Positions 4,878-48,056 of a DNA stretch of 64,000 bases are shown here, one piece after another (within the stretch, counting starts at the first letter, position 1; every line of letters starts with the position of its first letter). The notes beneath the pieces were generated by a model. It saw nothing but the letters and a program-made list of their open reading frames with translations, was not told the DNA's origin and did not search any database. Source of the stretch: Actinomycetota bacterium. Its GTDB lineage: Bacteria > Actinomycetota > UBA4738 > HRBIN12. Location of the stretch: the NCBI GenBank assembly GCA_040882605.1, contig JBBEAY010000023.1, positions 76,786 through 140,785 on the forward strand. Reading direction: 5' to 3'. The position numbers and the translations under genes were made by a program.

Positions 4878-4899
4878 CCCCCGGAAGGAGGGCTCACCC

Positions 4900-8033: not shown

Positions 8034-8043
8034 CCGGCCGGAT

Positions 8044-9187: not shown

Positions 9188-9196
9188 GGCCTGTCG

Positions 9197-20403: not shown

Positions 20404-20834
20404 ACGAACCAATGGACGAGGCCGACCAAGAGTGCTCCGCCGGACGGGAGCGAAGTCTTCGCGGCAGCGATCGACAGAGCGGTCGCACCGACTGCGCCGT
20501 CGGACTGTTTCCACCATTCGGGCAGCCACACCATGAGCGCGATGCCGAGGGCACCGATTAGGTTGCCGACGTAGACCGGGGCCCAGTCCCCGGACCCTGG
20601 CGTCGAGCCGGTGAGGATCGTCGTCGACAGGACGGCCGCGAGACCGATGAACGCCCAGGCCAGGACTCCGACACGAAGGTCGATAAGACGGGTGCGTTCG
20701 CCTTCGCGACCCCGCGTCTCAACGAGAGCCGAGGTCTCGTTCGGGGCGAAGGAGAGCGCTCGCACCACTGGCCGGATGGCCCGACGGTGATGGGTCGCGG
20801 CCTCCCGAACACGGGCCACTCGGCCCTGACTCAT
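20382..20834 (-). CDS. hypothetical membrane protein
   Basis: 150 aa with 3 predicted TM helices. Its 3-prime end overlaps the convergent ATPase gene by 22 nt. Confidence 0.5.
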   Translation of the reverse strand: MSQGRVARVREAATHHRRAIRPVVRALSFAPNETSALVETRGREGERTRLIDLRVGVLAWAFIGLAAVLSTTILTGSTPGSGDWAPVYVGNLIGALGIALMVWLPEWWKQSDGAVGATALSIAAAKTSLPSGGALLVGLVHWFVYLRDRR

Positions 20835-24478: not shown

Positions 24479-25813
24479 TCAGATCGCGTAGGAGTGTTCG
24501 ACTCCGACGAGGATCGGTGCGAGCACATCCTTCAGCCTCGGCGATCCTGTTTCCTCCAGTCGGTATGTCACGCGCGCGGTCGGCTGCTGGATCTGGATCA
24601 CGTGACGGAGATCCATCGGTGTGCCGATCACCACCGTGTCGCACGGTGTCTGCGCGATCGTCTCCTCCAGCTCCTTGAGCTGGCTGGGGGAGTAACCCTG
24701 TGCTGGAAGCACGGCGCCGACGTCGTAGCGCTCGAACACCTCCGCGATCGTGCCGTGCGCGTAGGGGCGAGGGTCGACGATCTCGGCTGCGCCGGCCCGT
24801 TGGGCTGCCACGGTCCCGGCGCCGAACTTCATGCCCCCGTGGGTCAGCGTTGGTCCGTCTTCGACGACCAGCACACGCTTGCCTGTCACGAGCTCGGGCT
24901 CGTCCAGCGTCAGCGCGCTGTTCGCGTGCAGGATGTCGGCCTCGGGATTCAGCTCTCGGACCGAGGCCTCCACCTCGAGCACCTTCTCGGGCGAAGCGAC
25001 GTCCACCTTGTTGATCAGCACGACGTCGGCCATACGGACGTTGGCCTCACCAGGGTGGTAGGCGCGCTCGTGGCCCGGGCGTAGCGGATCGGTGATCGTG
25101 ATGTGGACGTCGGGTCGGTAGAACGGCAGGTCGTTGTTGCCGCCGTCCCACAGCAGGACATCGCACTCCTGCTGCGCGTCCTCGAGGATCGCGCCGTAGT
25201 CGACGCCCGCGTACACGATCGTGCCCTCACGGATGTGTGCTTCGTACTCTTCCCGTTCCTCCACCGTGACGCCCGCTGTGTCCAGATCCTGGAGCGTGGC
25301 GAAGCGTTGGACGCGCTCGGCAACCAGGTCGCCGTAGGGCATCGGGTGTCGCACCGCGACCACACGCAGACCTTCGTGCTTCAGCAGGTCGGCGATGTAC
25401 CTCGTCGTCTGGCTCTTGCCGCAACCGGTTCGCACGGCGCAGATGGCTACCACCGGCACCGAGGCAGTGAGCATCGTTGCCTCCGGCCCGAGCAGCGTGA
25501 AGTTGGCGCCCGCCGCCATGACCTCGCTCGCCTTGTGCATCACGTACTCGTACGACACGTCGGAGTACGCGAACACGACATCGTCGACCTTCCGGTCCGC
25601 GATGAGGTCCGCGAGCTCCTCTTCAGGGTGGATCTCGATGCCGTTCGGATACCGTGGCCCGGCGAGCTGCGCCGGGTAGACGCGGTCGTCGATGAACGGG
25701 ATCTGGGCCGCCGTGAAGGCGACCACCTCGGTCAGCGGGTCGTCCCGGTAGACCACGTTGAAGTTGTGGAAGTCGCGACCCGCGGCTCCCATGATGATGA
25801 TTCGTCGCTGCAT
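24479..25813 (-). CDS. cyclic 2,3-diphosphoglycerate synthase-like P-loop protein
   Basis: N-terminus RIIIMGAAGRDFHNFNVVYRDDP and P-loop GCGKSQTT. The ATG at 25813 is favoured because AGGAAGGGG lies 9 nt upstream (the ORF opens at 25822). Confidence 0.85.
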   Translation of the reverse strand: MQRRIIIMGAAGRDFHNFNVVYRDDPLTEVVAFTAAQIPFIDDRVYPAQLAGPRYPNGIEIHPEEELADLIADRKVDDVVFAYSDVSYEYVMHKASEVMAAGANFTLLGPEATMLTASVPVVAICAVRTGCGKSQTTRYIADLLKHEGLRVVAVRHPMPYGDLVAERVQRFATLQDLDTAGVTVEEREEYEAHIREGTIVYAGVDYGAILEDAQQECDVLLWDGGNNDLPFYRPDVHITITDPLRPGHERAYHPGEANVRMADVVLINKVDVASPEKVLEVEASVRELNPEADILHANSALTLDEPELVTGKRVLVVEDGPTLTHGGMKFGAGTVAAQRAGAAEIVDPRPYAHGTIAEVFERYDVGAVLPAQGYSPSQLKELEETIAQTPCDTVVIGTPMDLRHVIQIQQPTARVTYRLEETGSPRLKDVLAPILVGVEHSYAI

Positions 25814-25826
25814 GACCACCATCCCC

Positions 25827-25872: not shown

Positions 25873-26187
25873 CTAGGCGCGCGAGCATCGCTCAGCCCGG
25901 GTCGATGGTCCCGAAGGTAGACGGACTGCTGGCCCTGGGTCCCTCGTGGTCGGTGCTGCGGTCGATCCGTTCCTGGCCGAGTGGGCCCCGGGAGCGTCGG
26001 TGCGGTGTCTCGAGCGTCATGACCGCCTTCCTTGTCCGCCCCCAGGATGCGCGCCTCGAGGGGCCCACAGCGACCGGGTGGCCCCCAGCCGGTGGGACCT
26101 TCAGCAGGGGGCCGGGTGGTGTCCGGCTCTTACGCTCAGAGCAGGAAGGGAGGAGCGACCTCTCCGCCCATGAGAAGGAGGGACAGA

Positions 26188-30991: not shown

Positions 30992-31461
30992 GTGGCATCT
31001 CCTCCCTTTCGCATCGCATCACGATGCGTGCGGTCCTTCGATGTTCAAGTGTCTCTGGGTGGCGTCCGATCCCGGGGTGCCGGACGGCCCTCGCTTCTCG
31101 GGACCTTCGACCCGGTGCGCACACGCTCATCAGGCCATGCTGGCTGACGAGGAGGCGAGATCATGCGCTACATGGGTGAGTGCACCGGCTTCTCGTCAAC
31201 AGAGCCCCGCCTCGAAGGTCTGGTCGGCGCGCCGTCGACGAGAGAACCCGGTCCGATGTTCGCTGTCGGGATTCACGGGCGTGGCGCGACCGTGGTGCGT
31301 CCTTCCCCGCGGCGGGCGTTGCCGCGCCAAGGATCTGTAACGCCTCCGGCCGGAGGAGCCAACGGCCGAACGAACAGAAGGTCCCGGAGCGGCAGGGTCG
31401 GACGCCCCTCACGGCGACCCCGTTCCTCGGCCAGACTAGGGATAGGAGGGAGGTGAATGCC

Positions 31462-32028: not shown

Positions 32029-32232
32029 ATGAAGGCGACCGTGGGCGACAAGCTGGTGATCCAAGGCCATCACATCGGTGAGCATGAGCGGGACGCGGAG
32101 ATCCTCGAGATCCACGGGGAGGAGGGGACCCCTCCGTTCCTCGTCCGGTGGTCGGACACGGGCCATGAGGGCCTCGTGTTCCCGGGACCCGATGCATCGA
32201 TCGAGCATCCCGGCGGGTCTCTGCCGAGCTGA
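32029..32232 (+). CDS. DUF1918 domain protein (Rv0569/Rv2302-like)
   Basis: MKATVGDKLVIQGHHIGEHERDAEILEIHGEEGTPPFLVRWSDTGHEGLVFPGPDA matches the DUF1918 pattern. GGGAAGGGGAGG RBS. Confidence 0.8.
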   Translation: MKATVGDKLVIQGHHIGEHERDAEILEIHGEEGTPPFLVRWSDTGHEGLVFPGPDASIEHPGGSLPS

Positions 32233-32348: not shown

Positions 32349-33494
32349 ATGTCCGCGGGCACCCCTTCGAGCCAACGGGACCAGGCGCTGATCGAAGCAG
32401 GCATGATCCTTGCATCGGAGCTGTCACTCGACGCGGTGTTGCAGCGCATCGTCGAGTTGGCGGTCGAGATCACCGATGCGCGGTACGGGGCTCTCGGGGT
32501 CTTGACGCCTGACCATCGGGCGATCGAGGAGTTCATCACCGTGGGCGTGACGCTCGAAGAGCGGGCAGCGATCGGTGACCCCCCCGTCGGCCACGGGGTT
32601 TTGGGGGTCCTCATCGAGGACATATGCCCGCTCCGCCTCCCCGACATCGGGAAGGATCCTCGTTCGGTGGGATTCCCTGCCAACCATCCACCCATGCGGT
32701 CGTTCCTCGGCGCTCCGGTGGTGGCCCGCGGAACCGTGTTCGGCAACATCTACCTCACAGAGAAGAAAGACGCGTCAGAGTTCAGCGAGCAGGACCAGGA
32801 CGCGCTCGTCGTGCTCGCTTCCCAGGCCGGCATCGCGATCGAGAATGCGCGGCTCTACGAAGAGGCGCAGCGAGCCCAACGGAAGCTGGCACGTCTCGAG
32901 CTGTTCGAGGAGCGGGAGCGCATCGCGAAGGAGCTGCACGACGGGGTGATCCAGTCGCTGTTCGCCGTCGGCATGGGACTGCAGGGGATCGCAGCAGCGA
33001 CCGATGACCCCGAGGTCGCTCGCCGCCTCGAGGGCGCCGTCGAGGAGGTCGATAGGGCGATCCGCGACCTGCGGAACTACATCTTCGGCTTGCGCCCGGG
33101 CATCCTGGCCGACAGACACCTCGGCCAGGCATTGCAGCAGCTGGCGCAGGAGTTCCAGACCAAGACCGAGGTCGTCACGATCGTCGATCTCGATCCCGCC
33201 CTCGCATCGGCCCTCGCCTCGAAGGCGCCCGATGTCGTGCAGCTGACCCGCGAGGCGCTCTCGAACGTCGGCCGCCATGCGGGGGCGACGACGTGCCGAG
33301 TGTCACTTCGCCGCAAGGACGACGGCGCCGTGCTCGAGATCGACGACGACGGCGCCGGCTTCGACGTCGACGGGCCTCACTCGGGCATGGGGCTCGCGAA
33401 CCTCGAGAGTCGCGTGGCGGGCCTCGGTGGGTCGTTCACCATCCAAAGCACCAAGGGAGAGGGCACGACCGTGCGTGCCCTCATCCCCTTGTAG
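32349..33494 (+). CDS. GAF-domain sensor histidine kinase (DevS/DosS-like, HisKA_3)
   Basis: GAF region (SLDAVLQRIVELAVEITDARYGALGVL ... FLGAPVVARGTVFGNIYLTEK), H-box ERERIAKELHDGVIQSLF, and an HATPase_c domain. Confidence 0.9.
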   Translation: MSAGTPSSQRDQALIEAGMILASELSLDAVLQRIVELAVEITDARYGALGVLTPDHRAIEEFITVGVTLEERAAIGDPPVGHGVLGVLIEDICPLRLPDIGKDPRSVGFPANHPPMRSFLGAPVVARGTVFGNIYLTEKKDASEFSEQDQDALVVLASQAGIAIENARLYEEAQRAQRKLARLELFEERERIAKELHDGVIQSLFAVGMGLQGIAAATDDPEVARRLEGAVEEVDRAIRDLRNYIFGLRPGILADRHLGQALQQLAQEFQTKTEVVTIVDLDPALASALASKAPDVVQLTREALSNVGRHAGATTCRVSLRRKDDGAVLEIDDDGAGFDVDGPHSGMGLANLESRVAGLGGSFTIQSTKGEGTTVRALIPL

Positions 33495-33515: not shown

Positions 33516-34877
33516 CTACGACACGACCAGCGCCGTCACCATGCCGAACATGCCCTCAGGTCCCTCGACGTGGGGAAGGATGTGGCAATGGAACGCCCAT
33601 GCCCCCGGATACACGGCGTGGACGAGCACGTCGAACCGTTGTCCCGGCGCCACCACCAGCGTGTCGGCCAGATACGGCTGAGCGAGCGGGAATCCGTCCT
33701 GGGCGACCACCTCGAAGTGATAGCCGTGCAGGTGCATCGGGTGCAGCATCGCCCCGTCGTTCGCGAGGTGCAGCAGCACCCAGTCACCGCGCTCGGCGGT
33801 GAGCGGCGCGGTCGCAGGGAACGACTTGCCGTTCAGCGTGAACCCGAGCGGACCGTCGCCGAGGAACATCGTGTACTCGCGATCGATGCCTGCCGGGGCG
33901 CCCGTGCGCAGGTGACCAGCGGCGTCGGTCGTGAAGGACGGATAGGACCAGGAGCCCTTCTCGGGCAGCACCATGAGCGCCCCGTAGAGACCCCGCCCGA
34001 CCTGTTCGGTGGAGTTGAAGTGGGAGTGGTACACGTAGAAGCCAGGCGGATCATTGATCGTGAACGTGTAGGTCCAGGAGCGCCCCGGCATGATCGGGTC
34101 CTGCGTCACGAAGGGCACGCCGTCGAACTCGTTCGGCACCGTCACGCCGTGGAAATGCAGTGTGGTCGGCTCGTCCAACTGGTTCTGCAGCACGAAGCGA
34201 ACCCTGTCCCCTTGCCGAACTCGGATCTCGGGCCCGGGGACCTGCTCGTTGAACGACATGGCATCGACGAACTTGCCCTTGGAGACTTCCCACTTGACCG
34301 GGAACGCCCACAGGTCGAACTGCTTCGTGCCATCGGGAAGGATCGTGGGCTTCAGGAGCTGACCGCCCTGCGTGTCGGTCTGATCGCCGGCCAGGAAGTC
34401 CTTCACCCCTTGCTCGTGCATCGCGGCCATCTGCTCGGCCGGCATGCTGGCCTGGGTTGGCGCCGCTGCGGTCTCCGCCCCCGCCGCGATCGTCGCGACC
34501 ATGCCGAGATCGGCGTGACCGGACACGGTGCAGAGCGCGTCGTAGCTGCCTTCGGCGAGCGGCGGCAGGTCCAACGTGGCCTGGGCACCGGGGTCGATGA
34601 CCTCGGTCTCGATCGTGGAACCGTCGACGACGACGCCGAACGTGTGAGGTGCCTCGCCTTGGTTCATCACGGTCATGCCGACCGGCGTGTCGGCGGGCAC
34701 GGCGATCGATGCCGGTTCGATCGCGAAGTCCGAGAGCATGACCTCGACGGCGGCCGGGGCGGCCTGTGCTTGCACTTCTGCTCCCGTTCCCTCGGCCGGG
34801 GACGTCGCGCTGCAGCCGGCGGCGACCAAGGTCAGTCCGACTGCACCCGCTGTGAACGCGGTTCGGATCCTGTGCAT
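33516..34877 (-). CDS. lipoprotein multicopper oxidase: N-terminal blue-copper cupredoxin domain plus a two-domain laccase-like core
   Basis: Lipobox LVAAGCS. Type-1 site HTFG...CTVSGHADLGM. MCO motifs HFHG, YHSH, HPMHLHGYHF and HCHILPHVEGPEGMFGM. Confidence 0.9.
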   Translation of the reverse strand: MHRIRTAFTAGAVGLTLVAAGCSATSPAEGTGAEVQAQAAPAAVEVMLSDFAIEPASIAVPADTPVGMTVMNQGEAPHTFGVVVDGSTIETEVIDPGAQATLDLPPLAEGSYDALCTVSGHADLGMVATIAAGAETAAAPTQASMPAEQMAAMHEQGVKDFLAGDQTDTQGGQLLKPTILPDGTKQFDLWAFPVKWEVSKGKFVDAMSFNEQVPGPEIRVRQGDRVRFVLQNQLDEPTTLHFHGVTVPNEFDGVPFVTQDPIMPGRSWTYTFTINDPPGFYVYHSHFNSTEQVGRGLYGALMVLPEKGSWSYPSFTTDAAGHLRTGAPAGIDREYTMFLGDGPLGFTLNGKSFPATAPLTAERGDWVLLHLANDGAMLHPMHLHGYHFEVVAQDGFPLAQPYLADTLVVAPGQRFDVLVHAVYPGAWAFHCHILPHVEGPEGMFGMVTALVVS

Positions 34878-35032
34878 CGTGGTGCTCCTTCCCTACACAA
34901 GAACGGTGTGACGCCGTACGCGTCCATCGGAGTCTCGCCGCGATCGGCGCGGGGGACAGCGGCCGATGGGCCCGTGACGACAGGGACCCTCGGCCCCTCC
35001 GCCGTGCCGCGCCATGTCCGACACTGGCCCGT

Positions 35033-35523: not shown

Positions 35524-36192
35524 ATGGGTCGGACACCTCCACTGAGGATCATGCTCGTGGACGACCACGAGATCGTGCGTGACGGCATCAAGGCGATGCT
35601 CGATACCCAGGACGACGTGATCGTCACCGCGCAAGCCGGCACCGTGCAAGAGGCGATCGACGAGGCCCAACGCACGCGCCCCGATGTCGTGGTGATGGAC
35701 GTGCGGCTCGCCGATGGAAGCGGCATCGAGGCGACCCGCGAGATCCGCGCGAATCATCCCGAGACCCGCGTGCTGATGCTGACGTCGTTCGCCGACGACG
35801 AGGCGCTGTTCGCCTCGATCATGGCGGGCGCGTCCGGCTACGTGCTGAAGCAGGTTCGCTCCGACGACCTCCTGCGTGCGATCCGTTCGGTGGGTGCAGG
35901 GGACAGCCTGCTCGATCCGAGCGTCACCAGCGCCGTGCTGGACCGGCTGCGCAAGGGCAAGCATCTGTTGAAAGACGAGAAGCTCGCACGGCTCTCTCCG
36001 CAGGAGGAGCGGATCCTCACGCTGATCGCCGACGGAGGGACGAACAGGGAGATCGGCGAGGAGCTCCGCCTCGCCGAGAAGACCGTCAAGAACTACGTCA
36101 GCTCGATCCTGTCCAAGCTCGAGGTGGCCAGACGCGCCGAAGCCGCCGCGTACCTGGCCAGCCACACCACGCTTCCCGGCACCTTCGAGTAG
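35524..36192 (+). CDS. NarL/LuxR-family response regulator (DevR/DosR-like)
   Basis: Receiver domain (LRIMLVDDHEIVRDG ... VVVMDVRLADGSG ... VLMLTSF) and a C-terminal HTH (LSPQEERILTLIADGGTNREIGEELRLAEKTVKNYVSSILSKL). Confidence 0.93.
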   Translation: MGRTPPLRIMLVDDHEIVRDGIKAMLDTQDDVIVTAQAGTVQEAIDEAQRTRPDVVVMDVRLADGSGIEATREIRANHPETRVLMLTSFADDEALFASIMAGASGYVLKQVRSDDLLRAIRSVGAGDSLLDPSVTSAVLDRLRKGKHLLKDEKLARLSPQEERILTLIADGGTNREIGEELRLAEKTVKNYVSSILSKLEVARRAEAAAYLASHTTLPGTFE

Positions 36193-36328
36193 CTCCCTGC
36201 GCGGTCCGAAGGTCCTGCGCCGACCTAGGCAAGTCCTGCCCAGGAAGGGTCGTCCGACCGGTGCCGCCGCCTCCCACCTCGCACATGCTGCGGGTATGGA
36301 TATGGACACAGAAAGGGAGGTGGGAACG

Positions 36329-36946
36329 ATGCAGACGACGCGGGACGTGACCGCGGTCGAGATGCCCCCGATGGAGCGGCTGGAGCCGATCCACACCAAG
36401 GGGTTGCAGCGGGTCTTCGGGTTCCTGCGGGTGGCGATGGGATGGACGTTCCTCTGGGCGTTCGTCGACAAGCTGTTCGGGCTTGGGTTCGCCACTGGCC
36501 GCGACGCCGAGACCGGCGCGATCGTGTTCGGCAGCGCCGACGCATGGGTCAACGGTGGGTCTCCGACCGCCGGTGTCCTCGGCTTCGCGCTCAAGGGCCC
36601 GTTCAAGGGCTTCTACGAGACGATCACTGGGGCGCAGATGGGTGCCGCAGGCCCGATGGCCGCAGGCTGGGTCGACTGGGTGTTCATGCTCTCGATGCTG
36701 GGGATCGGCCTCGCGCTGATCCTGGGGATCGGTGTCAGGCTCGCCGCCCTCGGCGGCATCGCGTGGATGGCGATCTTCTACACCGCCACGGCGATCTGGC
36801 CCGACAACAACCCGATCCTCGACAATCACATCATCGAGGCAGGCGTGTTGACGGGGCTGTTCCTGGCCAACGCGGGCCGCTACTACGGGCTCGGCAAGGC
36901 CTGGCAGGGCCTGGGGTTCGTCAAGGATCGGAAGTACCTGTACTGA
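36329..36946 (+). CDS. DoxX/DoxD-like membrane protein
   Basis: AGGGAGG RBS 8 nt before the ATG at 36329. It has 4 TM helices with a DoxX-like pattern (FGFLRVAMGWTFLWAFVDK ... LGGIAWMAIFY). Confidence 0.72.
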   Translation: MQTTRDVTAVEMPPMERLEPIHTKGLQRVFGFLRVAMGWTFLWAFVDKLFGLGFATGRDAETGAIVFGSADAWVNGGSPTAGVLGFALKGPFKGFYETITGAQMGAAGPMAAGWVDWVFMLSMLGIGLALILGIGVRLAALGGIAWMAIFYTATAIWPDNNPILDNHIIEAGVLTGLFLANAGRYYGLGKAWQGLGFVKDRKYLY

Positions 36947-37116: not shown

Positions 37117-38346
37117 GTGCGGCCGAGGATGACCACCGCCGTGTACCAGACGGTTGCGCGCGCCTGGCTGACGCTTGCCGGGGTCTCGCTCCTGCTCCCT
37201 CCCGAACGGCGGGTGGGCATCTGGCTGCCGCTTCACTTGACGCTCGCGGGCGCCGTGACGACCGCCATCTCGGGAGCGATGCAGAACTTCATGCTTGCAC
37301 TCACCGCGACACCGGCGCCCCCCGCCGGGGTGAGCTGGGCGCAGCTCGGCCTGGTCGTGGTGGGTACGACCTCGATCGTCGTCGGGGTGCCCTTCTCGAT
37401 CCCCTGGCTCGTGGTCGTCGGCGGGACCGCGTTCGTCGCGGCGACCGGGATCCTCGCGTGGATGCTGTGGCGCTCGTGGGGGCGCGCCCTGAACAAGCGG
37501 CACGCCTTACCGATGGCCGCCTACGGGGCGGCAGTGCTGGCCGCGTTGATCGGCGGAACGCTCGGTGCGTTGCTCGGGAGTCACAGCGTCGCCGGCGCGA
37601 CGTACGTGCACGTGAGGCGAGCGCACATGACGCTCAACGTGCTCGGCTTCGCGTCCCTCACCGTGGTCGGGACGCTCGTGACGCTGTTGCCGACCGTCCT
37701 GCGCGTGCGCATGCCTCGCTGGAGAGGTCAGGTCGCAATGGCGCTGTTCGTCGGCGGGCTGCTCATGCAGCTCCTCGGTTGGGGTCTGGACCTCACGCCG
37801 ATGCTCGCCGCGGGCGGCATCGCCTACGCGGCCGGATCGCTCAGCCTCGCCTGGCTCGTCATCTCGGTGCTCCGCGTCGAACGTCGATGGAAGGCGCCGT
37901 TGGCGGCCCTGCACATGGTGGCGGCGGCCGCCTGGTTCGTATCGGGGTCGTTGGCGTTCGCCTGGGCACTGATGCATGGACCCGAGGGGTTCGATGCCTT
38001 CCGCTCGAACTTCCTCGTCGCGTTCGTCGGGGGCTGGCTCATCCAGGTGCTGCTCGGCGCCTGGTCGTACCTGCTGCCGAACGCGAGACCGGCGCATCCG
38101 GACATGCGACGGCGCTGGCTTGCGGCGTTCGAGATGGCGGCGCCGTTGCAACTGATCCTGCTCAACGCCGGGCTCGTGCTGATGGCGTTGCGGGGTGCAG
38201 GCTGGGCGAGCCACGAGATCGGCGACGCCGGCGTGCTCCTGGCGTTCACCGGCGCGGGCCTGGCGCTCGCCAAGGCATGGTTCTTCCCGCTGTTGGGCCT
38301 CGGGCCGGTGGACTCGGACCGCGCGCGAGCCATCTGGGGCGGGTGA
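37117..38346 (+). CDS. polytopic membrane protein, NnrS-like; paralogue of 14590-15834
   Basis: Contains WLPLHLTLAG and AHMTLNVLGFASLTVVGTLVTLLPT, with 11-12 predicted TM helices. Confidence 0.75.
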   Translation: MRPRMTTAVYQTVARAWLTLAGVSLLLPPERRVGIWLPLHLTLAGAVTTAISGAMQNFMLALTATPAPPAGVSWAQLGLVVVGTTSIVVGVPFSIPWLVVVGGTAFVAATGILAWMLWRSWGRALNKRHALPMAAYGAAVLAALIGGTLGALLGSHSVAGATYVHVRRAHMTLNVLGFASLTVVGTLVTLLPTVLRVRMPRWRGQVAMALFVGGLLMQLLGWGLDLTPMLAAGGIAYAAGSLSLAWLVISVLRVERRWKAPLAALHMVAAAAWFVSGSLAFAWALMHGPEGFDAFRSNFLVAFVGGWLIQVLLGAWSYLLPNARPAHPDMRRRWLAAFEMAAPLQLILLNAGLVLMALRGAGWASHEIGDAGVLLAFTGAGLALAKAWFFPLLGLGPVDSDRARAIWGG

Positions 38347-38366: not shown

Positions 38367-38810
38367 CTAGTCCGGATCCCGCCGGGAGGAATGACGGGCC
38401 GCCTCGGCCAGGCCGTTGTCACGGATGTCGGCCAAGGTGATCGAGCCCATCACCGACTGCAAGCCCGGCTTGATCTCCGCCCACTGGAAGTGCAAGGGAC
38501 ACGGGTTCTGCGGTTCGCATTCTTCGCGCCAGAAGATACATGTCTCCCAGATGACGTCGTTGCCCTCGACGGCGGCGAGGATCTCGCTCAGCGACACGAT
38601 CGTGGCCTCGCGGTCGAGCCGATAGCCGCGGCCGCGCACCGAGGAGATCACTCCGCCGCTCGCGAGCCGCCGCATGATCTTGGAAAGGAACGGCGCGGGC
38701 AGGTCTGCCTCGGCGGCGAGTTCCCTCGCCTCGACGAGCTCCCCGGGCGGACGAGTGGCGAGCGCGCTGAGCGCCTCGATGGCGTAGCGGCTCTCTCGTG
38801 ACAGGCGCAT
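38367..38810 (-). CDS. Rrf2-family transcriptional regulator with three-Cys cluster motif (NsrR/IscR-like)
   Basis: MRLSRESRYAIEALSALA..., a wHTH region, and the Cys triad CIFWREECEPQNPC. Confidence 0.9.
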   Translation of the reverse strand: MRLSRESRYAIEALSALATRPPGELVEARELAAEADLPAPFLSKIMRRLASGGVISSVRGRGYRLDREATIVSLSEILAAVEGNDVIWETCIFWREECEPQNPCPLHFQWAEIKPGLQSVMGSITLADIRDNGLAEAARHSSRRDPD

Positions 38811-38858
38811 GTGTCGTCTCTCTCGCTGGTGGGCGTGCCGATCGACGCCCCTTCCTTC

Positions 38859-39707
38859 CTATAGATCCATCCGCGGCAGCGCCCATCGTGCCACAAGCAG
38901 CGGGAGGACGGTCCACGCGACCAAGTCCCCGACGAGCAGGATCACCGTCCCCACCGCGCCGAACGTGGCGATCAGGTACGCGCCGAACGGCCCGAGCGCC
39001 GTGCCCTGGAAGTTCGTGCCGAGCAGGGCGAGGATGCGACCGGCCTCGAGCGGGTTCAGCAGGATCGCGCCGAGCAGCCCCGAGGGGCCCATGTGCACGC
39101 TCGGCGCCAGCGCCGCGAGCGCGAGATCCACGCCGAGCGAGAACAGGATCCAGAGCGCCACGGCCACCGACACAGCCTGGACGCGGCTGCCGACCAGGGA
39201 AGAGATCGCGACGCCGATCGCCACGCTCGCGGCAGCCACGCCGAGCGTCGCACCGATCAGGGTCATCAGGGCCGGCACGTCGCCGCTCTTGGCGACCCCC
39301 GCCATGATCAGCAAGGCGGATCCGAACCCGATCCCCAGGGTCGTCCAGAGTGAACCGGTGAGCCCGAGGAACGCGCCCGTTGCGACCTGGGACCGCCGGA
39401 GCGGCTGCGCGCAGATCATCGCGAGCATGCCCTGCTCTCGCGCACCGACGAGCGACCCGGCGCCGAGCAGCAGCCCCATCAGAGATGGCAGCAGGACGCC
39501 CAGGTTCACCAGGGTCGCCGACGCGGGGCCGATTCCCGAGAGCCCCAGCTCGCGCACGGTTCGGAACGCGAGCAGCGTCACGACCACGCAGAGGACGCCG
39601 AAGACGGCGGCCATCGTGAGAACCCAGCGGGCCCGCACCGAGCTGCGGTACTCCCACGACGCGATCACGCGGGTCGGTCCGGGCGTCGACGACGCGCTCA
39701 TGAGCAT
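38859..39707 (-). CDS. nosY: ABC-2 type permease, NosY-like
   Basis: 6-TM ABC-2 permease directly downstream of, and overlapping, the NosF-like ATPase gene within the nos cluster. Confidence 0.8.
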   Translation of the reverse strand: MLMSASSTPGPTRVIASWEYRSSVRARWVLTMAAVFGVLCVVVTLLAFRTVRELGLSGIGPASATLVNLGVLLPSLMGLLLGAGSLVGAREQGMLAMICAQPLRRSQVATGAFLGLTGSLWTTLGIGFGSALLIMAGVAKSGDVPALMTLIGATLGVAAASVAIGVAISSLVGSRVQAVSVAVALWILFSLGVDLALAALAPSVHMGPSGLLGAILLNPLEAGRILALLGTNFQGTALGPFGAYLIATFGAVGTVILLVGDLVAWTVLPLLVARWALPRMDL

Positions 39708-40414
39708 GCCTCCAGGGATCCGTCGGCGCAGGGCGTCGCCGCTTCCGCCAGCCGTTGCACCGTGAGTTCCTCCTCGAGCACGAGTCGGCCGTCGTCGACG
39801 TGCAGCGCCCGGTCCGCGACCCCCCGCAGCTCCGAGGGGGAGGGACTCGACACGATCGAGGTGACGCCTTCACGGTCCCGCAGGGTCTGCAGCATCGTCC
39901 AGAACTCCGCCCGCCCACTCTCGTCGAGGGACGCGGCGGGCTCGTCGAGCAGGAGCAGTTTCGGGCGACCGAGCAGCGCGACCGCCAGGGACACCCGGTG
40001 TCGCTGACCTCCGGAGAGCATGCCGATCAGGTCGCTGTCGGGCCGCACGAACCCCTCGGGCAGCGGGACGTCGTCCCGGTCGGCCCTTCGCAGCGCCGCG
40101 AAGAAGTCGAGGACCTCGCCGATCGTCGAGGCCTCGGGCATCGACACGCTCTGCGGGAGGAACCCGATGATTCGGCGCGAACCGGGTCGGGCATCGAGGA
40201 CCTCGCCGTCGAGACGAGCCGTCCCGTCGAACCGCGACAGCCCGGCGAGACACTTCAGGAGCGTGCTCTTGCCGCTGCCGTTGGGTCCGCCGAGCGCAAC
40301 GATCACGCCGGGCGGAAGGGAGAAGCTCACGTCGTGCAGACCCCACCCGCCGCGGTACGCCTTGGTCAGGTGCTCCACCTCGAGCAACGCCTGGGCCCGC
40401 GCGAACTCAGGCAC
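39698..40414 (-). CDS. nosF: ABC transporter ATP-binding protein, NosF-like
   Basis: Walker A GPNGSGKST, signature LSGGQRHR and Walker B LLLLDEP. The GTG at 40414 overlaps the nosD stop by 8 nt (the ORF opens at 40447). Confidence 0.88.
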   Translation of the reverse strand: MPEFARAQALLEVEHLTKAYRGGWGLHDVSFSLPPGVIVALGGPNGSGKSTLLKCLAGLSRFDGTARLDGEVLDARPGSRRIIGFLPQSVSMPEASTIGEVLDFFAALRRADRDDVPLPEGFVRPDSDLIGMLSGGQRHRVSLAVALLGRPKLLLLDEPAASLDESGRAEFWTMLQTLRDREGVTSIVSSPSPSELRGVADRALHVDDGRLVLEEELTVQRLAEAATPCADGSLEACS

Positions 40415-41909
40415 CGGCCATCGCCACTCTCCGCGGCCGGCGCGCACGCATCAGGAGCCAGGCGCATCCTGCCGTCATCAACAGCCCCGGGATCCACAAG
40501 GGCACCAGGCCGCCTTCTGGGTCGCCCCGCAGCGCCGGCCCCCGCGAAGCCATGAGCGGCACCTCGTCGCGGACGATGGTCTCGATCGGCGACCACTTGT
40601 CCTCGACCGAGGACAGCAGGCGGAACGCCGGGCCTGACTCGAGCGCCTGCAGGATCGGCTCCTCGGCCACGAGCTGGCTCATCCGCCCGCTCTCCACGTG
40701 GGCGAGGTCGCCGGTGCCGTCGCCGGCGGCGTCGAACCCGCTGTAGTCGCTCCAGTAGTTGCCGATGCCTTCCTCGGACCATTCGACCTGCGCGTATCCC
40801 TCTCCTCCCAGCGTCACCTGGGTGGAGTTCTCGACGAACCCGTTTCCCGTGAAGACGGCATCAGCTGACGGGTAGAGGAGGACGCCGATCTGATTCATCG
40901 CGATCGTGTTGTCGATGAGTCGGGTGGGAGCTCCTCCCGTGCGGCCAGCGTCATCGATGTGCAGCCCCACCCGGTTGTCGGCGATCACGTTGCGGGTCAG
41001 CGTGACGTCGCCGGCGTCCTTGACGAGCACGCCGAACCCGGTCGAGGCGCTCCCCGACTCGAGGATCGTGTTGTCGGACATCTCGACCGGCCCGCCGTAC
41101 ATCAGCACGACGCCTGACAGGTTTCCACGCAGCGTCTGGCGCCGGATCGCGAGGTCCTCCGAATACATGTCATGGATCGCATAGCGGCTGTCGTGCACCG
41201 TGTTGTTGTCCAGTGTCGCTCCCGTGCCGTAGGACAGGTAGATACCGTCGCGGACCGTATCGATCGTGGAATCGCGCACCAAGGCGTCGATGGTGTTCCA
41301 CAGCCAGATCCCGTCGCCGCGGATCTGCGCGGCGGGGGCCACGTCTCCCACGTCATGTCCGGCGTGCTCGCCGGTGTCGACTACGTGCAGCTCACCGGTG
41401 ATCATGCCCTCCCCGAGGATCGATGCGTCGTCGATCACCACGTCTGCGGAGCCGCGCACGGTGATGCCGATGTAGCAGTCCTGCACGTCGACGTCCTCGA
41501 TCACCGCCCGGTCGGCCTCGTTGATCATCACACCCGACGGTGTCCCGACGGGCCCCCGCCCCGAGTCGCGGATCGAGAAGCCCCGCACCGTCACGTCGGG
41601 CGCCACGACCCTGAGCACCGAACCCATGCCGGCGCCGTCGAGGATCGGCCGGCCCTGCCCGACGAGCGTGAGCGGCCGGTCGATGCGGATCTGCCCCACG
41701 TACACGGCCTCGGGAACCTCCACCATCGATCCCGGCTCCGCGTCATCGATCATGGCCTGGAGGTGCTCGGCGGGCATCGAGACCATCCCGTTGGGCGTGG
41801 TCGTCAGGTCCCCCATGTCGTGCCCGGCCCCGTCGGTCGCGCCCGCACCGACGGGGAGCGAAAGTGCCGCCGCCAGGAACAGCACCGCCAGCGCATGGAT
41901 CGGCCTCAT
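40407..41909 (-). CDS. nosD: periplasmic right-handed beta-helix copper-binding protein NosD
   Basis: Signal peptide MRPIHALAVLFLAAALSLPVGAGA, repeated parallel-beta-helix segments (NxxxxNxxGI-type), and a C-terminal TM helix. The start overlaps the upstream stop (ATGA). Confidence 0.88.
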   Translation of the reverse strand: MRPIHALAVLFLAAALSLPVGAGATDGAGHDMGDLTTTPNGMVSMPAEHLQAMIDDAEPGSMVEVPEAVYVGQIRIDRPLTLVGQGRPILDGAGMGSVLRVVAPDVTVRGFSIRDSGRGPVGTPSGVMINEADRAVIEDVDVQDCYIGITVRGSADVVIDDASILGEGMITGELHVVDTGEHAGHDVGDVAPAAQIRGDGIWLWNTIDALVRDSTIDTVRDGIYLSYGTGATLDNNTVHDSRYAIHDMYSEDLAIRRQTLRGNLSGVVLMYGGPVEMSDNTILESGSASTGFGVLVKDAGDVTLTRNVIADNRVGLHIDDAGRTGGAPTRLIDNTIAMNQIGVLLYPSADAVFTGNGFVENSTQVTLGGEGYAQVEWSEEGIGNYWSDYSGFDAAGDGTGDLAHVESGRMSQLVAEEPILQALESGPAFRLLSSVEDKWSPIETIVRDEVPLMASRGPALRGDPEGGLVPLWIPGLLMTAGCAWLLMRARRPRRVAMAGA

Positions 41910-42553
41910 GCTCGGCTCGACTCCTTCGGCTCCCACACCACGATGGGGCGATGGATCCACCATCCTCGCGCACGGTGAGCGAGCGGTACCGCGAACGAGA
42001 GCAGGAGCGCCGCCCCGAACAGGCACCAGAGCGCGGGCCCCGGGTACGACCAGGTCGTGAAGTTGAGCACCTTGGTCGGACCCACCACAAGGGGGGTGAA
42101 CGGGTCGAGGCGGATCGCTGCGTCGCCGGTCACGCTGTGCCCGTACTGCCACAGCCGGAACTGCACGTCCGCCAGGGCCCCGATCGGGATCGACCAGAGC
42201 CCGAGCCGCGCGAGCCGCGCGAGGAGGTAGCCACGTGACAGGGCCGTCGCGACCGCGACCGCGGTCAGCCCGAGCAGGATCACCGGCCCCCACAGCTTCA
42301 TCTCGGCAGCGTCGGCATCGGTGAACGCCTGCATCCCCACGTAGTGGTTGAGCTCGTTGATCTCACGGATGTCGCCCTCCACGCCGTGCCCGTAGGCGGT
42401 CAGGGACAGTCCTGCCGGATACTGCGGCGCCGAGAGCCGGGCCTCCCAGATCGGCAGGCGCCAGGCGAGGATGACGAGGACGGCGGCGGCCACACCCAGC
42501 CCGATCCGGATCAACCTCGGCCCGATCTCGGTGCGGGTCCGCTCGGCCGCCAT
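41906..42553 (-). CDS. 4-TM membrane protein, NosB-like
   Basis: It sits between the nosZ/cupredoxin genes and nosD. It has an external loop LSAPQYPAGLSLTAYGHGVEGDIREINELNHYVGMQ. The assignment rests on position and on my recollection of clade II nos clusters. Confidence 0.6.
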   Translation of the reverse strand: MAAERTRTEIGPRLIRIGLGVAAAVLVILAWRLPIWEARLSAPQYPAGLSLTAYGHGVEGDIREINELNHYVGMQAFTDADAAEMKLWGPVILLGLTAVAVATALSRGYLLARLARLGLWSIPIGALADVQFRLWQYGHSVTGDAAIRLDPFTPLVVGPTKVLNFTTWSYPGPALWCLFGAALLLSFAVPLAHRARGWWIHRPIVVWEPKESSRA

Positions 42554-42572
42554 CCTCGGTCACCTCTTGCCG

Positions 42573-43040
42573 CTACTGCACCGTGAGCGTGCCGACCATC
42601 GAGGTCGTGTGCACCACGCAGTCGTAGGTGTAGGTCCCCGCGGCGAGGGCCGGGATCTCGTAGTCGGTTTCAGCCGGCCCTGTGGTCACCGCGTCGTCGG
42701 CCGGCGCGAACACCGGCGTCCCGCTGTTGTCCGTGCCCTCGAAGATCTGCACGTTGTGCGGGATCCCCGGGTCGTCGTTCACGAAGTGGATCGTGAACGA
42801 CGTGTCGGCCGTCGCCGTGATCGCGGTCTCGGCGAAGCCGGTGGTCGCCGAGTTCGCCGGTGCCGTCAGCGCGATCGCGTCGGTCGCCGCGGGGGCGCTC
42901 GACGTGTCGGTCGCCGCGGGGGCGCTCGACGTGTCGGTCACCGTCGAGCCGCCGCCCCCGCCGCAAGCGGCGAACACGAGGACCGCGACCGCCGCAAGGG
43001 CGGTGAGGGCGGTGAGGTGGTTTATCCGGTGGGTGCGCAT
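42573..43040 (-). CDS. lipoprotein cupredoxin (type-1 blue copper protein)
   Basis: Lipobox LVFAACGG, a low-complexity linker, and ligands HNVQ ... CVVHTTSM. 155 aa, taken from the internal ATG of the 42573-43772 ORF. Confidence 0.85.
   Translation of the reverse strand: MRTHRINHLTALTALAAVAVLVFAACGGGGGSTVTDTSSAPAATDTSSAPAATDAIALTAPANSATTGFAETAITATADTSFTIHFVNDDPGIPHNVQIFEGTDNSGTPVFAPADDAVTTGPAETDYEIPALAAGTYTYDCVVHTTSMVGTLTVQ
42879..42932. repeat. perfect 27-bp tandem duplication inside the cupredoxin linker (encodes TDTSSAPAA twice)
   Basis: GTCGGTCGCCGCGGGGGCGCTCGACGT occurs at 42879-42905 and again at 42906-42932. Confidence 0.95.
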
Positions 43041-43072
43041 AGCGATGAACTCCCTTTCTCGATCGGATGTGG

Positions 43073-45178
43073 TCACTGCGGGGCGACCTGCAGCCAGCCC
43101 TGCATCTCCAGGTGAAGCGCCGAGCAGAACTCCGTGCAGTACATCCCGAAGGATCCGGCGCGATCCATCGGGACGCTGATGTTGACGACCTCGCCAGGGT
43201 CGATGCTGGCCTCGATGTTGTACTGCGGGATCGCGAAGCCGTGGGTCGCGTCGGGGGTCTGCTCGATGTTCGTGATGTGCACGTGCAGGGTGTCTCCCTG
43301 CTTCGTTTCGACGATGTCGGGAGTGAAGTGCGACCGCATCGCGGTCATGTACACGTGCACGTCCCTGCCCTTGCGTTCGATCCGCTCCCCTCCCGCCGCC
43401 GTGGCGAACGGCGACGCCGCAAACGTCAGCGGATCGGTGCCCACCTCGTAGACCTGGATGACGTTCTTGAGCTTGTCCCGGTGGATCATCTGGACGTAGT
43501 GCGGCTCGCCCATGCCGATCGGCATATCGGACAGGATCTCCATCTGAGGGGTCGTCAGGTCCACCAGTTGGAAGTTCTGCGGGTGGAGCGTTCCGACCGG
43601 CGGGAAACGGTCGATCGACCACTTGTTGAGCGCCACCAGGTATCGGCCGTCCGGCTCGACGGTGTCGCCCTGGGCCGTGCACAGGTGACCGATGTTGTAC
43701 TGCACCGGCAGCTTGTCGATCAGCTTGAAGGCGTCGGCGCCCTCCTTGCCGGCCTTCGGTCCCAGCGACCATTTGGCGACCGCGGAGTCCACGAACAGCG
43801 ACGTGTACGCGTTGCCCTCGTTGTCGAACTGGGTGTGCAGAGGCCCTGCGCCGAGCTCGACCTGCGCCTCGAGGACGGACTCCAGCTTCAGGATCGGGAC
43901 GCCGAACGGATCGCTCCCCTGGTAGTCCTGCTTCGAGATCGCCTCCTTGATCCGGTCCATCGAGTACACGGAGGCACTGGGGTCGAGCTTGCCGCTGACG
44001 CAGACGTAGTCGCCCGTCGGGCTCACATCCACGCCGTGCGGGTTCCGGGGCTCGGGGACGAAGTGCAGGATCCCCTCGCTGACGGCCACCTCGAGCGGGA
44101 TGACGCTCATCCCGCGCAGGGTCGTCAGCCCGCGACCGGCCTTGAAGACCTCCTCGGCCCTCTGCCAGTCGATGATGTGCATGAAGTCGTAGTCGTTCTT
44201 GGTAGTGGTGGCCTCCAGCGCGCCGGCCGGGTTCAGCGTCCCGTCCACGTTCATGTCACCGCCGATGGCCATCTCCGTGTTGTACGAGTTGATGAACCCG
44301 TAGCCGAAGCTCGTGAGCTTCCCGGCGTCGGCCAGGTCCTGCGTGTAGGGGGGCAGCTCGATCTGGAAGCTCTGCGCCTGGTCGAACCGGCCGGTCTTCT
44401 GGTCGATGGCCAACCATGTCGAGAAGCCGCGGAAGTCCTCCTTGTACCGCGACAGCGGCGCATAGCCGCTCTCGGTCACGGCGGTCGGCGTCATGGTCGA
44501 GATGTGCACGTATTCCGAGTTCGGGGTGACGAAGCACCCGCCGTGCGAGGTGGACAGGTTGGGGACGTCGAAGATCTGCTTGGTCTTGAAGTCGCGGAGG
44601 TCGACCATCCCGATCCGGCCGTTGGCACGGTCGTTGATGTAGAGCCAGCGCCCGTCGTAGGCGCCCTCGGTCTCCGACAGGGCCGGATGGTGCGTGTCGC
44701 CCCATGCGAGCGGATTCGACTTGGCCGGGTCGGAGCCCTCGCCCAGCACGATGTTGCCCTGGTCTGTCCCGTAACCATATCCCTGCCAGGAGTCCGGCGA
44801 GAACACGGGGATCACCTTGAGCAGACGCATCGACGGGACGCCGAACACGTATACCTGGCCCGAGTGACCGCCTGACGACATGAGGAAGTACTCGTCGAAC
44901 TCGCCGCTCGGGACATAGGTCTTCAGCGCGGCCTGCGCCGCGGCCCCGTCGAGGCCACGTTCGTTGGCCACGTCGGACAGATCGCCGCCGCTGGAGGAGC
45001 CGAAGCCGACCCTGGTGCCCGCCACGCCGACGGCCGCCCCGCCGGCGAGCATGCCGAGCGCGGTGCGCCGTGACACGACCGAGCCGTGCTTGGTCACGAC
45101 TTTGCGTTCGGGCGCCTTCGGGGTCTGCGCAGGGTGCTCGTTCGCGCCCGGGGCGCCCCGCTTGTCGTCCGTACCCAT
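43073..45178 (-). CDS. nosZ: nitrous-oxide reductase NosZ
   Basis: 701 aa with an RR-containing signal (VVSRRTALGMLAGGAAVGVAG). It has beta-propeller CuZ region motifs (WGDTHHPALSETEGAYDGRWLYINDRANGRIG) and the C-terminal CuA site CTEFCSALHLEM. Confidence 0.95.
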   Translation of the reverse strand: MGTDDKRGAPGANEHPAQTPKAPERKVVTKHGSVVSRRTALGMLAGGAAVGVAGTRVGFGSSSGGDLSDVANERGLDGAAAQAALKTYVPSGEFDEYFLMSSGGHSGQVYVFGVPSMRLLKVIPVFSPDSWQGYGYGTDQGNIVLGEGSDPAKSNPLAWGDTHHPALSETEGAYDGRWLYINDRANGRIGMVDLRDFKTKQIFDVPNLSTSHGGCFVTPNSEYVHISTMTPTAVTESGYAPLSRYKEDFRGFSTWLAIDQKTGRFDQAQSFQIELPPYTQDLADAGKLTSFGYGFINSYNTEMAIGGDMNVDGTLNPAGALEATTTKNDYDFMHIIDWQRAEEVFKAGRGLTTLRGMSVIPLEVAVSEGILHFVPEPRNPHGVDVSPTGDYVCVSGKLDPSASVYSMDRIKEAISKQDYQGSDPFGVPILKLESVLEAQVELGAGPLHTQFDNEGNAYTSLFVDSAVAKWSLGPKAGKEGADAFKLIDKLPVQYNIGHLCTAQGDTVEPDGRYLVALNKWSIDRFPPVGTLHPQNFQLVDLTTPQMEILSDMPIGMGEPHYVQMIHRDKLKNVIQVYEVGTDPLTFAASPFATAAGGERIERKGRDVHVYMTAMRSHFTPDIVETKQGDTLHVHITNIEQTPDATHGFAIPQYNIEASIDPGEVVNISVPMDRAGSFGMYCTEFCSALHLEMQGWLQVAPQ

Positions 45179-45219: not shown

Positions 45220-45271
45220 TTTACTCTGTTGCCGAGCCAGGCTAACTCCCGGGGTTGGAAGGTGTAGGGGA

Positions 45272-45300
45272 CGATGGTCCCGGGTCAGGCAGGACCATCG
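45272..45300. promoter_or_regulatory. perfect 9-bp inverted repeat in the nosZ / nitronate-monooxygenase divergent intergenic region
   Basis: CGATGGTCC-N11-GGACCATCG. It shares the GGTCC/GGACC core with the repeat at 45199-45219. Confidence 0.35.
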
Positions 45301-45438
45301 GCCCGGTCTTCTCCTGGTCAAGGTGGGGCGCACGAGTCCAGCCATGAGAGGAGCCTTGGGCGTCCTACTGCCATTTCGTGCCTTCTTCGGAAAACTAGGG
45401 CTGCTAGCCTCAGTTGCGTGGGCAGTCCAACCCTGATC

Positions 45439-47936: not shown

Positions 47937-47975
47937 GGGGATGTGGAGACGCGGGACGTGGGGACGTGGGGACGT
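47937..47975 (+). repeat. octamer repeats: the first 8 nt of tRNA-Ala reiterated immediately upstream
   Basis: GGGGATGT (47937-44), CGGGACGT (47952-59), GGGGACGT (47960-67) and GGGGACGT (47968-75, which is tRNA positions 1-8). Confidence 0.9.
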
Positions 47976-48040
47976 AGCTCAATTGGTAGAGCGCCGGCTT
48001 TGCAAGCCGGAGGTCGCCGGTTCGATCCCGGTCGTCTCCA
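47968..48040 (+). tRNA. tRNA-Ala (anticodon UGC)
   Basis: Acceptor GGGGACG/CGTCTCC with the G3:U70 identity pair, anticodon loop TTTGCAA, and T arm GCCGG-TTCGATC-CCGGT. CCA is not encoded. Confidence 0.93.
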
Positions 48041-48056
48041 CTAGTTCGACAACCTG

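Follow-up and report, generated by a model that had tools for sequence, protein, structure and literature searches.

How does a bacterium build and feed a nitrous oxide (N2O) reductase when most of the accessory genes described for this enzyme are missing from its gene cluster? The question is raised by a 64,000-nucleotide stretch of DNA from an uncultured Actinomycetota bacterium (GTDB lineage Actinomycetota, UBA4738, HRBIN12; assembly GCA_040882605.1, contig JBBEAY010000023.1, positions 76,786 to 140,785 of the forward strand), hereafter the window, in which seven genes of a nos cluster follow one another in the same orientation on the minus strand (38367-45178). An earlier note on this DNA described a cluster of mixed clade features whose electron input and copper chaperone were unexplained. 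We consider it probable that the cluster is a functional clade II operon for N2O reduction in a monoderm actinobacterium, predicted to encode the enzyme, its electron carrier, its maturation machine and a regulator.

A compact cluster around a clade II NosZ

Scans with Pfam and NCBIfam models, on which the family assignments in the cluster are based, found all seven genes in the order that the earlier note had given: nosZ, a lipoprotein cupredoxin gene, nosB, nosD, nosF, nosY and an Rrf2-family gene (Table 1). The compactness that it described (0-48 nucleotides between genes, or overlaps) is equally real, the successive spacings from nosZ to the Rrf2 gene being +32, +19, -4, -41, -10 and +48 nucleotides. 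Purine runs resembling Shine-Dalgarno sequences precede most of the starts. The seven reading frames are intact, and their third-position GC is high, as in the rest of the genome. NosD matches PF05048 with 133 bits and TIGR04247 with 315 bits (cut-off 300), while NosY matches PF12679 with 45.7 bits and is 75-82 % identical to the syntenic gene at three related loci (L001, L002 and L081). The nosF gene is syntenic with those of relatives, whose products measure 216-236 amino acids, and its start codon probably lies downstream of position 40447.

The NosZ protein scores 766 bits against the clade II model TIGR04246 (cut-off 625), 405 bits against the clade I model TIGR04244, below the cut-off of 625, and 200 bits against the clade III model, which it fails. 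All seven histidines of the CuZ centre (163, 164, 212, 381, 448, 498 and 560) and the ligands of the CuA centre (H646, C681, C685, H689 and M692) are in place, and an alignment of 25 relatives conserves these copper ligands, H448 alone being replaced in one of them. The first CuZ motif spans D161 to A166 and was rightly read in the earlier note as DTHHPA, a clade II trait: it is the DxHH form without a third histidine, in which D161, H163, H164, P165 and A166 are invariant among the 25 relatives and position 162 is T, A or S. Sanford et al. are said to have set out this form of the motif as a clade II rule in 2012. The solved NosZ structures that match the protein are all distant (270-336 bits).

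A neighbour-joining tree of 58 loci places this NosZ deep inside clade II, within a tight actinobacterial group adjoining bacterium HR12, Limnocylindria and Acidimicrobiia; the larger branch around this group also takes in Dehalococcoidia and Acidobacteriota. The mixed clade character claimed earlier does not survive the hidden Markov model (HMM) scores and the tree, and on its sequence the enzyme is a clade II NosZ with nothing intermediate in its position. The best 120 NosZ clusters listed share 62-97 % identity, and those named by NCBI belong mostly to Actinomycetota or Acidimicrobiia. A survey of 2014 recorded nosZ in none of 102 genomes of cultured Actinobacteria (PMC4250227). The rarity of nosZ in Actinomycetota, another claim of the earlier note, thus holds for cultured members and not for the uncultured Actinomycetota and Acidimicrobiia found among the best 120 clusters listed.

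A twin-arginine leader in clade II

In place of the Sec-type signal expected for clade II, NosZ carries a conserved SRRxAL motif. Residues 36-41 read SRRTAL and are followed by a weakly hydrophobic h-region rich in Gly and Ala, with R55 after it; the 35-residue n-region ahead of the motif is itself conserved (MG-DG...). The RR-type signal seen in the earlier note, resembling signals for twin-arginine translocation (Tat), is therefore real, and the pattern [ST]RRxA[LIV] recurs in 17 of the 25 aligned relatives. The peak hydropathy of the h-region averages 1.9 in this RR group (1.66 in the NosZ of the window) against 2.76 in the eight relatives without the two arginines, which is the difference expected between Tat and Sec signals. 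Elsewhere in the tree, the Dehalococcoidia possess a different RR leader (TRRELI), the Acidimicrobiia are mixed, and other phyla bear Sec or lipobox signals.

The occurrence of a Tat leader together with nosB has already been published for clade II Chloroflexota (PMC11409646). Since this exception is known, a Tat leader is no bar to clade II membership, and the motif described here would extend the exception to a second phylum. The NCBI label 'Sec-dependent nitrous-oxide reductase', which derives from the title of the HMM, is probably wrong for these proteins. At one related locus, a tatA/E gene (L083:9550-9720) lies directly upstream of an RR-leader nosZ, in divergent orientation.

A reduced gene set shared by relatives

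Among the approximately 50 genes called in the whole 64-kb window, no match was found to NosR (PF04205/PF12801), NosL (PF05573), ApbE/NosX (PF02424), NosG or NosH. Nor does the window hold a gene for a c-type cytochrome, the sole CxxCH motif in six-frame open reading frames (ORFs) of at least 60 amino acids being antisense to nosB/nosD. The lack of these accessory genes, which the earlier note had pointed out, is borne out over the 64 kb, and in five relatives with precomputed Pfam hits the same genes, nosR and nosX/apbE included, are absent within 8-10 kb of nosZ.

The layout itself is widely kept. The order nosZ-cupredoxin-nosB-nosDFY, with or without a final Rrf2 gene, is common to five loci (L001, L002, L081, L082 and L083), of which L081 and L082 likewise terminate in the Rrf2 gene. 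Two further loci, L084 and L085, are fused variants of the same arrangement, and the loci of Acidimicrobiia and Limnocylindrales read nosZ-cupredoxin-[NosB::NosD]-nosF-nosY. This order persists across lineages whose NosZ proteins are only 65-83 % identical. Because the same absences and the same layout recur in relatives, the compact set is a trait of the lineage and not an assembly gap. At the Limnocylindrales locus L085, a gene of the AhpC/TSA-redoxin fold (L085:14362-14985) directly follows nosY, in the slot taken elsewhere by nosL or the Rrf2 gene.

A cupredoxin as probable electron donor

The gene next to nosZ encodes a small blue copper protein with a signal peptide ending in the lipobox-like FAAC26 and a tether rich in Thr, Ser, Ala and Pro in which TDTSSAPAA occurs twice. 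Its Copper-bind domain (PF00127, 26.5 bits against a cut-off of 21.2) presents the type-1 ligands H95, C141, H144 and M148 in canonical order, and these are conserved in relatives. A search of the PDB with a profile of five homologues gave auracyanin A of Chloroflexus as the nearest solved relative (2AAN, E 7e-12), followed by plastocyanins. Auracyanin is a membrane-tethered blue copper electron carrier of Chloroflexus. The electron route through the cupredoxin that the earlier note had suggested is plausible in view of the full His-Cys-His-Met site and of this likeness.

An HMM search of the locus set found a cupredoxin beside nosZ throughout the sampled Actinomycetota/Chloroflexota branch, in 30 loci. 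Its gene directly follows nosZ in the actinobacterial, HR12, Acidimicrobiia and Limnocylindria loci, and directly precedes it in those of Dehalococcoidia and Anaerolineae. The same search detected none by nosZ in the loci of Acidobacteriota, Gemmatimonadota, Myxococcota and Planctomycetota; the sole match outside the branch is weak (E 1e-4) and about 4.4 kb from nosZ (L072). This linkage suggests that NosZ in these lineages probably receives its electrons from the cupredoxin as a dedicated donor. By analogy, this copper protein may be to them what the lipoprotein cytochrome NosC, whose gene stands ahead of nosZ, is to Bacillota.

NosB and the maturation machine

The 215-amino-acid product of the third gene matched no Pfam or NCBIfam family and no PDB sequence. 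A profile search, however, recovered a homologue adjoining nosZ or nosD in 78 of 78 clade II loci with enough sequence, and because a counterpart is present in every one of them we identify the protein as the clade II marker NosB. This putative identity draws on its transmembrane helices, its synteny and its restriction to nos clusters. An AlphaFold2 model with a mean predicted local distance difference test score (pLDDT) of 86 has four transmembrane helices (residues 3-32, 83-104, 110-139 and 173-200) in a bundle, with a five-stranded sheet as its cap; the model loosely resembles claudins and TARP auxiliary subunits, with template modelling scores (TM-scores) of 0.35-0.47. The invariant residues (PxW, APQYP, GD..E, LNHYxG and PFTP) all fall in two extracytoplasmic loops, and the alignment contains no conserved histidine pairs or other cofactor ligands in the transmembrane helices.

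The clearest lead on the function of NosB comes from gene fusions. NosB and NosD form one continuous ORF in 28 of the 78 clade II loci, from Acidimicrobiia, Chloroflexota and Acidobacteriota. For the fusion at L084:12459-14522, the public gene call is a single protein of 687 amino acids, with 55 % identity over 170 residues by BLASTP (E 3e-44). NosD and NosF are fused in four loci, and NosB, NosD and NosF together in two Poribacteria loci. The fusion of NosB with NosD, alone or together with NosF, places it with the maturation machine and not with a quinol oxidase. The fusions, the loop-borne invariant residues and the predicted fold favour NosB as a putative subunit of NosDFY over a role as quinol dehydrogenase.

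Many NosB homologues bear the JGI/IMG label 'copper chaperone NosL' (P0129, P0133, P0135, P0137, P0140 and others). A relationship to NosL was considered and rejected. NosL structures are deposited in the PDB; the NosB profile retrieved no PDB chain at E<=10 and no Pfam match, and no NosL chain is among the fold-search matches listed for the NosB model. Counts of nosL taken from such annotation may be off, possibly including the 'nosDYLZ' of Thermoflexus (PMC8129789).

NosD itself shows two GHD(M/V)GD motifs, one at the mature N-terminus (residues 29-34, 41808-41825) and one inside an insertion (residues 184-189, 41343-41360). Only the closest relatives, L081 and L082, share them; L083 and L084 lack both. 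These motifs could be extra copper-binding loops.

Regulation

The last gene of the cluster encodes an Rrf2 protein (PF02082, 96.6 bits) with cysteines C91, C98 and C104, presumed from the sequence to form an Fe-S site. Of the three-cysteine, NsrR-like regulator of the earlier note, the cysteines stand and the likeness to NsrR lacks specific support: the NsrR model NF008240 gives 23.8 bits against a cut-off of 182, and models of IscR and Suf regulators 59-61 bits. Rrf2 genes accompany nosZ in about 30 clade II loci of several phyla.

Upstream of nosZ lies a candidate operator, a palindrome each arm of which resembles the core of the mycobacterial DosR box, GGGAC-N4-GTCCC. It is conserved at L001, L002, L081 and L082, and is the only perfect match to the DosR core in the window. 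When one mismatch is allowed, all four core matches are intergenic (P about 0.001, given 18 % of non-coding DNA) and lie in divergent promoter regions, those of nosZ, a multicopper oxidase gene, a Usp gene and the gene at 24479-25822. Counted more broadly, DosR-box-like sites (45268-45304, 34968-34996, 25899-25927, 31100-31113 and 32169-32189) occupy five promoter-like regions, including those of the Usp and kinase genes.

A two-component pair related to DosS/T and DosR is encoded 7-13 kb from the nos operon. The best PDB matches of the GAF domain of the kinase are DosT (2VZW, E 4e-46) and DevS (2W3D and others, E 1e-37), and the response regulator is matched over its full length by Mycobacterium tuberculosis DevR (3C3W, E 8e-51). 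Together, the pair and the sites suggest a small regulon responding to hypoxia or nitric oxide (NO) and taking in nosZ. Simple consensus scans for promoters and terminators gave nothing above chance.

A proposed route for electrons and copper

Taken as a working operon, the cluster can be given a mechanism. NosZ would be exported by Tat, then freed on the outer side of the membrane or kept there by an uncleaved leader. Electrons would pass from menaquinol to a respiratory complex encoded elsewhere, of the bcc or alternative complex III type, and from there to the tethered cupredoxin, which would deliver them to CuA and on to CuZ, in the role that NosC has in Bacillota. NosB, NosD, NosF and NosY may constitute one membrane complex that builds the CuZ centre; either a dedicated NosL would not be needed, or copper would be supplied by a chaperone encoded elsewhere. 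Transcription would be turned on under hypoxia or NO by the DosS/T-DosR pair acting at the palindrome upstream of nosZ, with the Fe-S Rrf2 protein as a possible second input sensitive to redox state or NO.

A bolder proposal, tentative and on the doubtful side in our view, is that N2O respiration in Actinomycetota and Chloroflexota forms an all-copper branch free of cytochrome c, where electrons would take the route just given through a tethered auracyanin-like cupredoxin and NosB instead of NosL would be the membrane partner that feeds copper, or docks NosZ, to NosDFY. If true, NosB would gain its long-missing function, and the dispensability of NosL in monoderm bacteria would be explained.

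Alternative explanations

Several other readings of the same genes have to be weighed. Were the cluster a decaying or silent remnant, the organism would not reduce N2O; the missing accessory genes would agree with this, as would the cultured Chloroflexota that has nos genes and showed no N2O uptake. We nevertheless find a remnant decidedly improbable, given seven intact frames with genome-like third-position GC, the conservation of all metal ligands, a gene order that is kept while NosZ identity falls to 65-83 %, and conserved regulatory sites. A hybrid system, in which clade I export and assembly are combined with clade II catalysis, might be read from the presence of an RR leader alongside DxHH and nosB. 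It is very improbable indeed, since the clade II model outscores that of clade I by 766 to 405 bits, NosZ is nested deep in clade II by HR12, Limnocylindria and Acidimicrobiia, nosR and nosX are lacking, and Tat with nosB has already been reported in clade II Chloroflexota. RR leaders are moreover patchy in this branch, with the actinobacterial RR group and, separately, the TRRELI of Dehalococcoidia, a pattern of signal peptide switches and not of a hybrid.

Other alternatives concern the parts played by single proteins. The cupredoxin might be a copper chaperone or store in place of NosL, NosZ then receiving electrons from another donor. This would suit the absence of NosL from the cluster in all relatives and the position of the lipoprotein on the same membrane face as NosD, like NosL; we hold it to be unlikely, however, as His-Cys-His-Met is the canonical ligand set for type-1 electron transfer, the nearest solved relatives, auracyanin and plastocyanin, are electron carriers, and the window has neither another donor nor a cytochrome c. 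NosB, for its part, might be the missing quinol dehydrogenase that passes electrons from menaquinol to the cupredoxin. The operon has no other membrane redox protein, and in Wolinella clade II N2O respiration requires the membrane protein NosB, according to a passage of PMC11388526 that cites Hein et al. 2017. Against this stand transmembrane helices free of conserved histidine pairs and cofactor ligands, invariant residues borne on extracytoplasmic loops, a small claudin-like four-helix bundle as predicted fold, and the fusion to the maturation parts NosD/NosF in 28 loci, and we regard a dehydrogenase as improbable.

Returning to a working clade II operon with NosB in the maturation machine, several points weigh against it. 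Fusions of NosB to cytochrome c in other organisms, mentioned with their source in a passage of PMC11409646, fit a role of NosB in electron transfer. N2O reduction has been demonstrated in no member of this NosZ branch, and Thermoflexus hugenholtzii, a cultured member of the Chloroflexota, has nos genes yet did not consume N2O (PMC8129789). The Tat export of NosZ is a prediction from motif and hydropathy. The electron route is only an analogy, because the quinol-oxidising step is not in the window, and genes for NosL, SCO1 or PCuAC may lie elsewhere on the chromosome or in the rest of the genome. Finally, the total of DosR-core matches is not above that expected from shuffled sequence and only their placement is unusual, so that DosR regulation of nos remains a lead.

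Neighbouring genes and context

Table 1. Features of the nos cluster, its candidate operator and nearby regulators (positions in the window), with the loci of NosB-NosD fusions
Feature	Position or locus	Strand	Basis
nosZ, clade II nitrous-oxide reductase, 701 amino acids, long N-terminal extension	43073-45178	-	TIGR04246
Tat-type leader core of NosZ, residues 36-60, SRRTALGMLAGGAAVGVAGTRVGFG	44999-45073	-	conserved RR motif
First CuZ motif, DTHHPA	44681-44698	-	read from sequence
Lipoprotein type-1 (blue) copper protein, auracyanin/plastocyanin-like, 155 amino acids	42573-43040	-	Pfam Copper-bind
nosB, putative, 215 amino acids, four transmembrane helices and extracytoplasmic beta-sheet	41906-42553	-	synteny, AlphaFold2 model
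nosD, 500 amino acids, N-terminal signal, C-terminal transmembrane anchor	40407-41909	-	PF05048, TIGR04247
nosF, ABC ATPase	39698-40447	-	PF00005, synteny
nosY, ABC-2 permease	38859-39707	-	PF12679
Rrf2-family regulator	38367-38810	-	PF02082
Candidate operator palindrome, 37 bp, GGGCCGATGGTCC-N11-GGACCATCGTCCC	45268-45304	-	upstream of nosZ
DosS/DosT-like sensor kinase (GAF, HisKA_3, HATPase)	32349-33494	+	Pfam, PDB matches of GAF
DosR/DevR-like response regulator	35551-36192	+	PDB match
NosB-NosD fusion loci	L004, L006-L009, L011-L013, L015, L017-L022, L024-L032, L079, L084		
Further NosB-NosD fusion loci	L065:5486-8962, L080:12033-15512		

The window has a GC content of 66-72 %; the end of gyrB comes first, followed by gyrA, a DUF3566 gene and a tRNA-Ile gene, an arrangement typical of actinobacterial origin regions. 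The tRNA-Ile(GAT) gene (4803-4879) follows gyrA-DUF3566 as it does in mycobacteria, where tRNA-Ala(TGC) adjoins it. Here the tRNA-Ala(TGC) gene is found at 47968-48041, and the gap of 43 kb between the two tRNA genes contains the nos operon and the Dos genes. No integrase was found in the window, and its base composition is uniform.

The earlier note had looked to two membrane proteins beside the cluster for the missing electron-input and chaperone roles. One of them, the DoxX-like protein (36296-36946), passes its Pfam model narrowly, with 24.4 bits against a cut-off of 23.6. The other, a 405-amino-acid protein called NnrS-like (37129-38346, plus strand), has no match to PF05940 even at E<=10, and that name falls. 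Near nosZ, none of the relatives examined has a counterpart of either protein, and both are poor candidates for those roles. The 405-amino-acid protein and the product of 14590-15684 (minus strand) are paralogous polytopic membrane proteins (32 % identity, E 4e-12) without Pfam or NCBIfam match.

Other genes with a possible bearing on copper or nitrogen metabolism were also assigned. The multicopper protein at 33516-34877 (minus strand) was rejected as NirK, which would have marked the organism as a denitrifier (70 bits against a cut-off of 296), and has all four laccase-type HxH motifs; the protein is a two-domain multicopper oxidase, predicted to be a lipoprotein, whose N-terminus bears an additional type-1 cupredoxin domain (C116, H121 and M126). 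A DosR-box-like site occurs in its promoter. The P-type ATPase at 18472-20403 was discarded as a copper pump for NosZ, as it passes the Cd/Zn-type model and fails the cut-off of the Cu type. A cluster at 7443-10908 (plus strand) comprises a thioredoxin-like membrane protein, a 178-amino-acid ORF of no family whose twin-arginine leader is clear (TSRRSFLGRVG), a MauE-domain protein and two ORFs without assignment; in L083, too, a MauE gene occurs, about 5 kb from nosZ (L083:4751-5377). The 128-amino-acid ORF at 20382-20768 (minus strand) matches the middle of the formate/nitrite transporter family below threshold (24.5 against 34.6 bits) and may be a gene fragment.

Significance

In the literature searched, which left subscription reviews outside its scope, nothing was found that describes an actinobacterial nos cluster, nosZ linked to a cupredoxin or NosB fused to NosD. 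New here are the linkage of cupredoxin and nosZ across two phyla, the NosB-NosD(-NosF) fusions and the DosR-box-like palindrome; Tat with nosB in clade II Chloroflexota and compact, nosL-poor clusters in Bacillota were already known. The fusions offer a concrete lead on the function of NosB.

To our knowledge, NosZ is the one biological sink known for N2O. The phyla Actinomycetota and Chloroflexota, which rank with the most abundant of soil and subsurface, tend to be classed as N2O producers or as irrelevant; with a conserved, minimal and seemingly self-sufficient nos operon in these lineages, their N2O consumption may be under-counted. Surveys are misled by 'Sec-dependent' HMM labels and by automatic 'nosL' calls that match NosB. 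The gene set required to build and feed NosZ may also be smaller than the textbook set, which is relevant to engineered N2O-reducing strains.

Comparison with known systems

On the side of regulation, the kinase GAF domain and the response regulator are close homologues of mycobacterial DosS/DosT-DosR (DevSR), and GGGAC-N4-GTCCC likewise occurs in promoters, including that of a Usp gene. The system differs from its mycobacterial counterpart by a kinase with one GAF domain instead of two and by sites made of paired 13-mers 11 nucleotides apart. We know of no nos operon in the known DosR regulon.

With the clade I systems of Pseudomonas stutzeri and Paracoccus (nosRZDFYLX), the cluster shares the two copper centres and the NosDFY machine, and export by Tat, predicted here, is the rule in clade I. 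In some clade I species, cupredoxins such as pseudoazurin can donate electrons to NosZ. Unlike clade I, the NosZ described here stays below the cut-off of the clade I HMM and lacks the third histidine in its CuZ motif, nosR, nosL and nosX are absent, and NosB is present.

The Chloroflexota (OLB14, Dehalococcoidia-type) come nearer, with a NosZ in the same large clade II branch, an RR leader, nosB and an adjacent cupredoxin. The RR groups of the two phyla are not sisters in the tree, however, and the actinobacterial leader has its 35-residue n-region; in Dehalococcoidia the cupredoxin gene precedes nosZ, and a NosB fused to NosD is usual. The auracyanin of Chloroflexus, as a membrane-tethered blue copper protein and the nearest solved relative, is a parallel for the cupredoxin. 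Chloroflexus has no soluble periplasmic cytochromes, and the reductase of auracyanin is alternative complex III. In contrast to the cupredoxin, auracyanin works in photosynthetic and aerobic chains, and the window does not encode its reductase; we know of no link between auracyanin and NosZ.

The closest described system is the nosC-nosZ-nosB-nosDYF cluster of denitrifying Bacillota, in which nosL is often missing (PMC3475470, PMC11388526). As in Geobacillus thermodenitrificans, Bacillus azotoformans and thermophilic spore-formers, a monoderm host combines a clade II NosZ, a NosB with four transmembrane helices encoded beside nosZ or nosD, and nosD, nosF and nosY; nosR, nosX and nosG/H are lacking in both, nosL is often absent there too, and the gene of a lipoprotein carrier adjoins nosZ. 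The differences lie in the carrier, here a type-1 copper lipoprotein downstream of nosZ and there the cytochrome c NosC upstream, and in the twin-arginine leader, the terminal Rrf2 gene and the order D-F-Y, which in Bacillota is D-Y-F.

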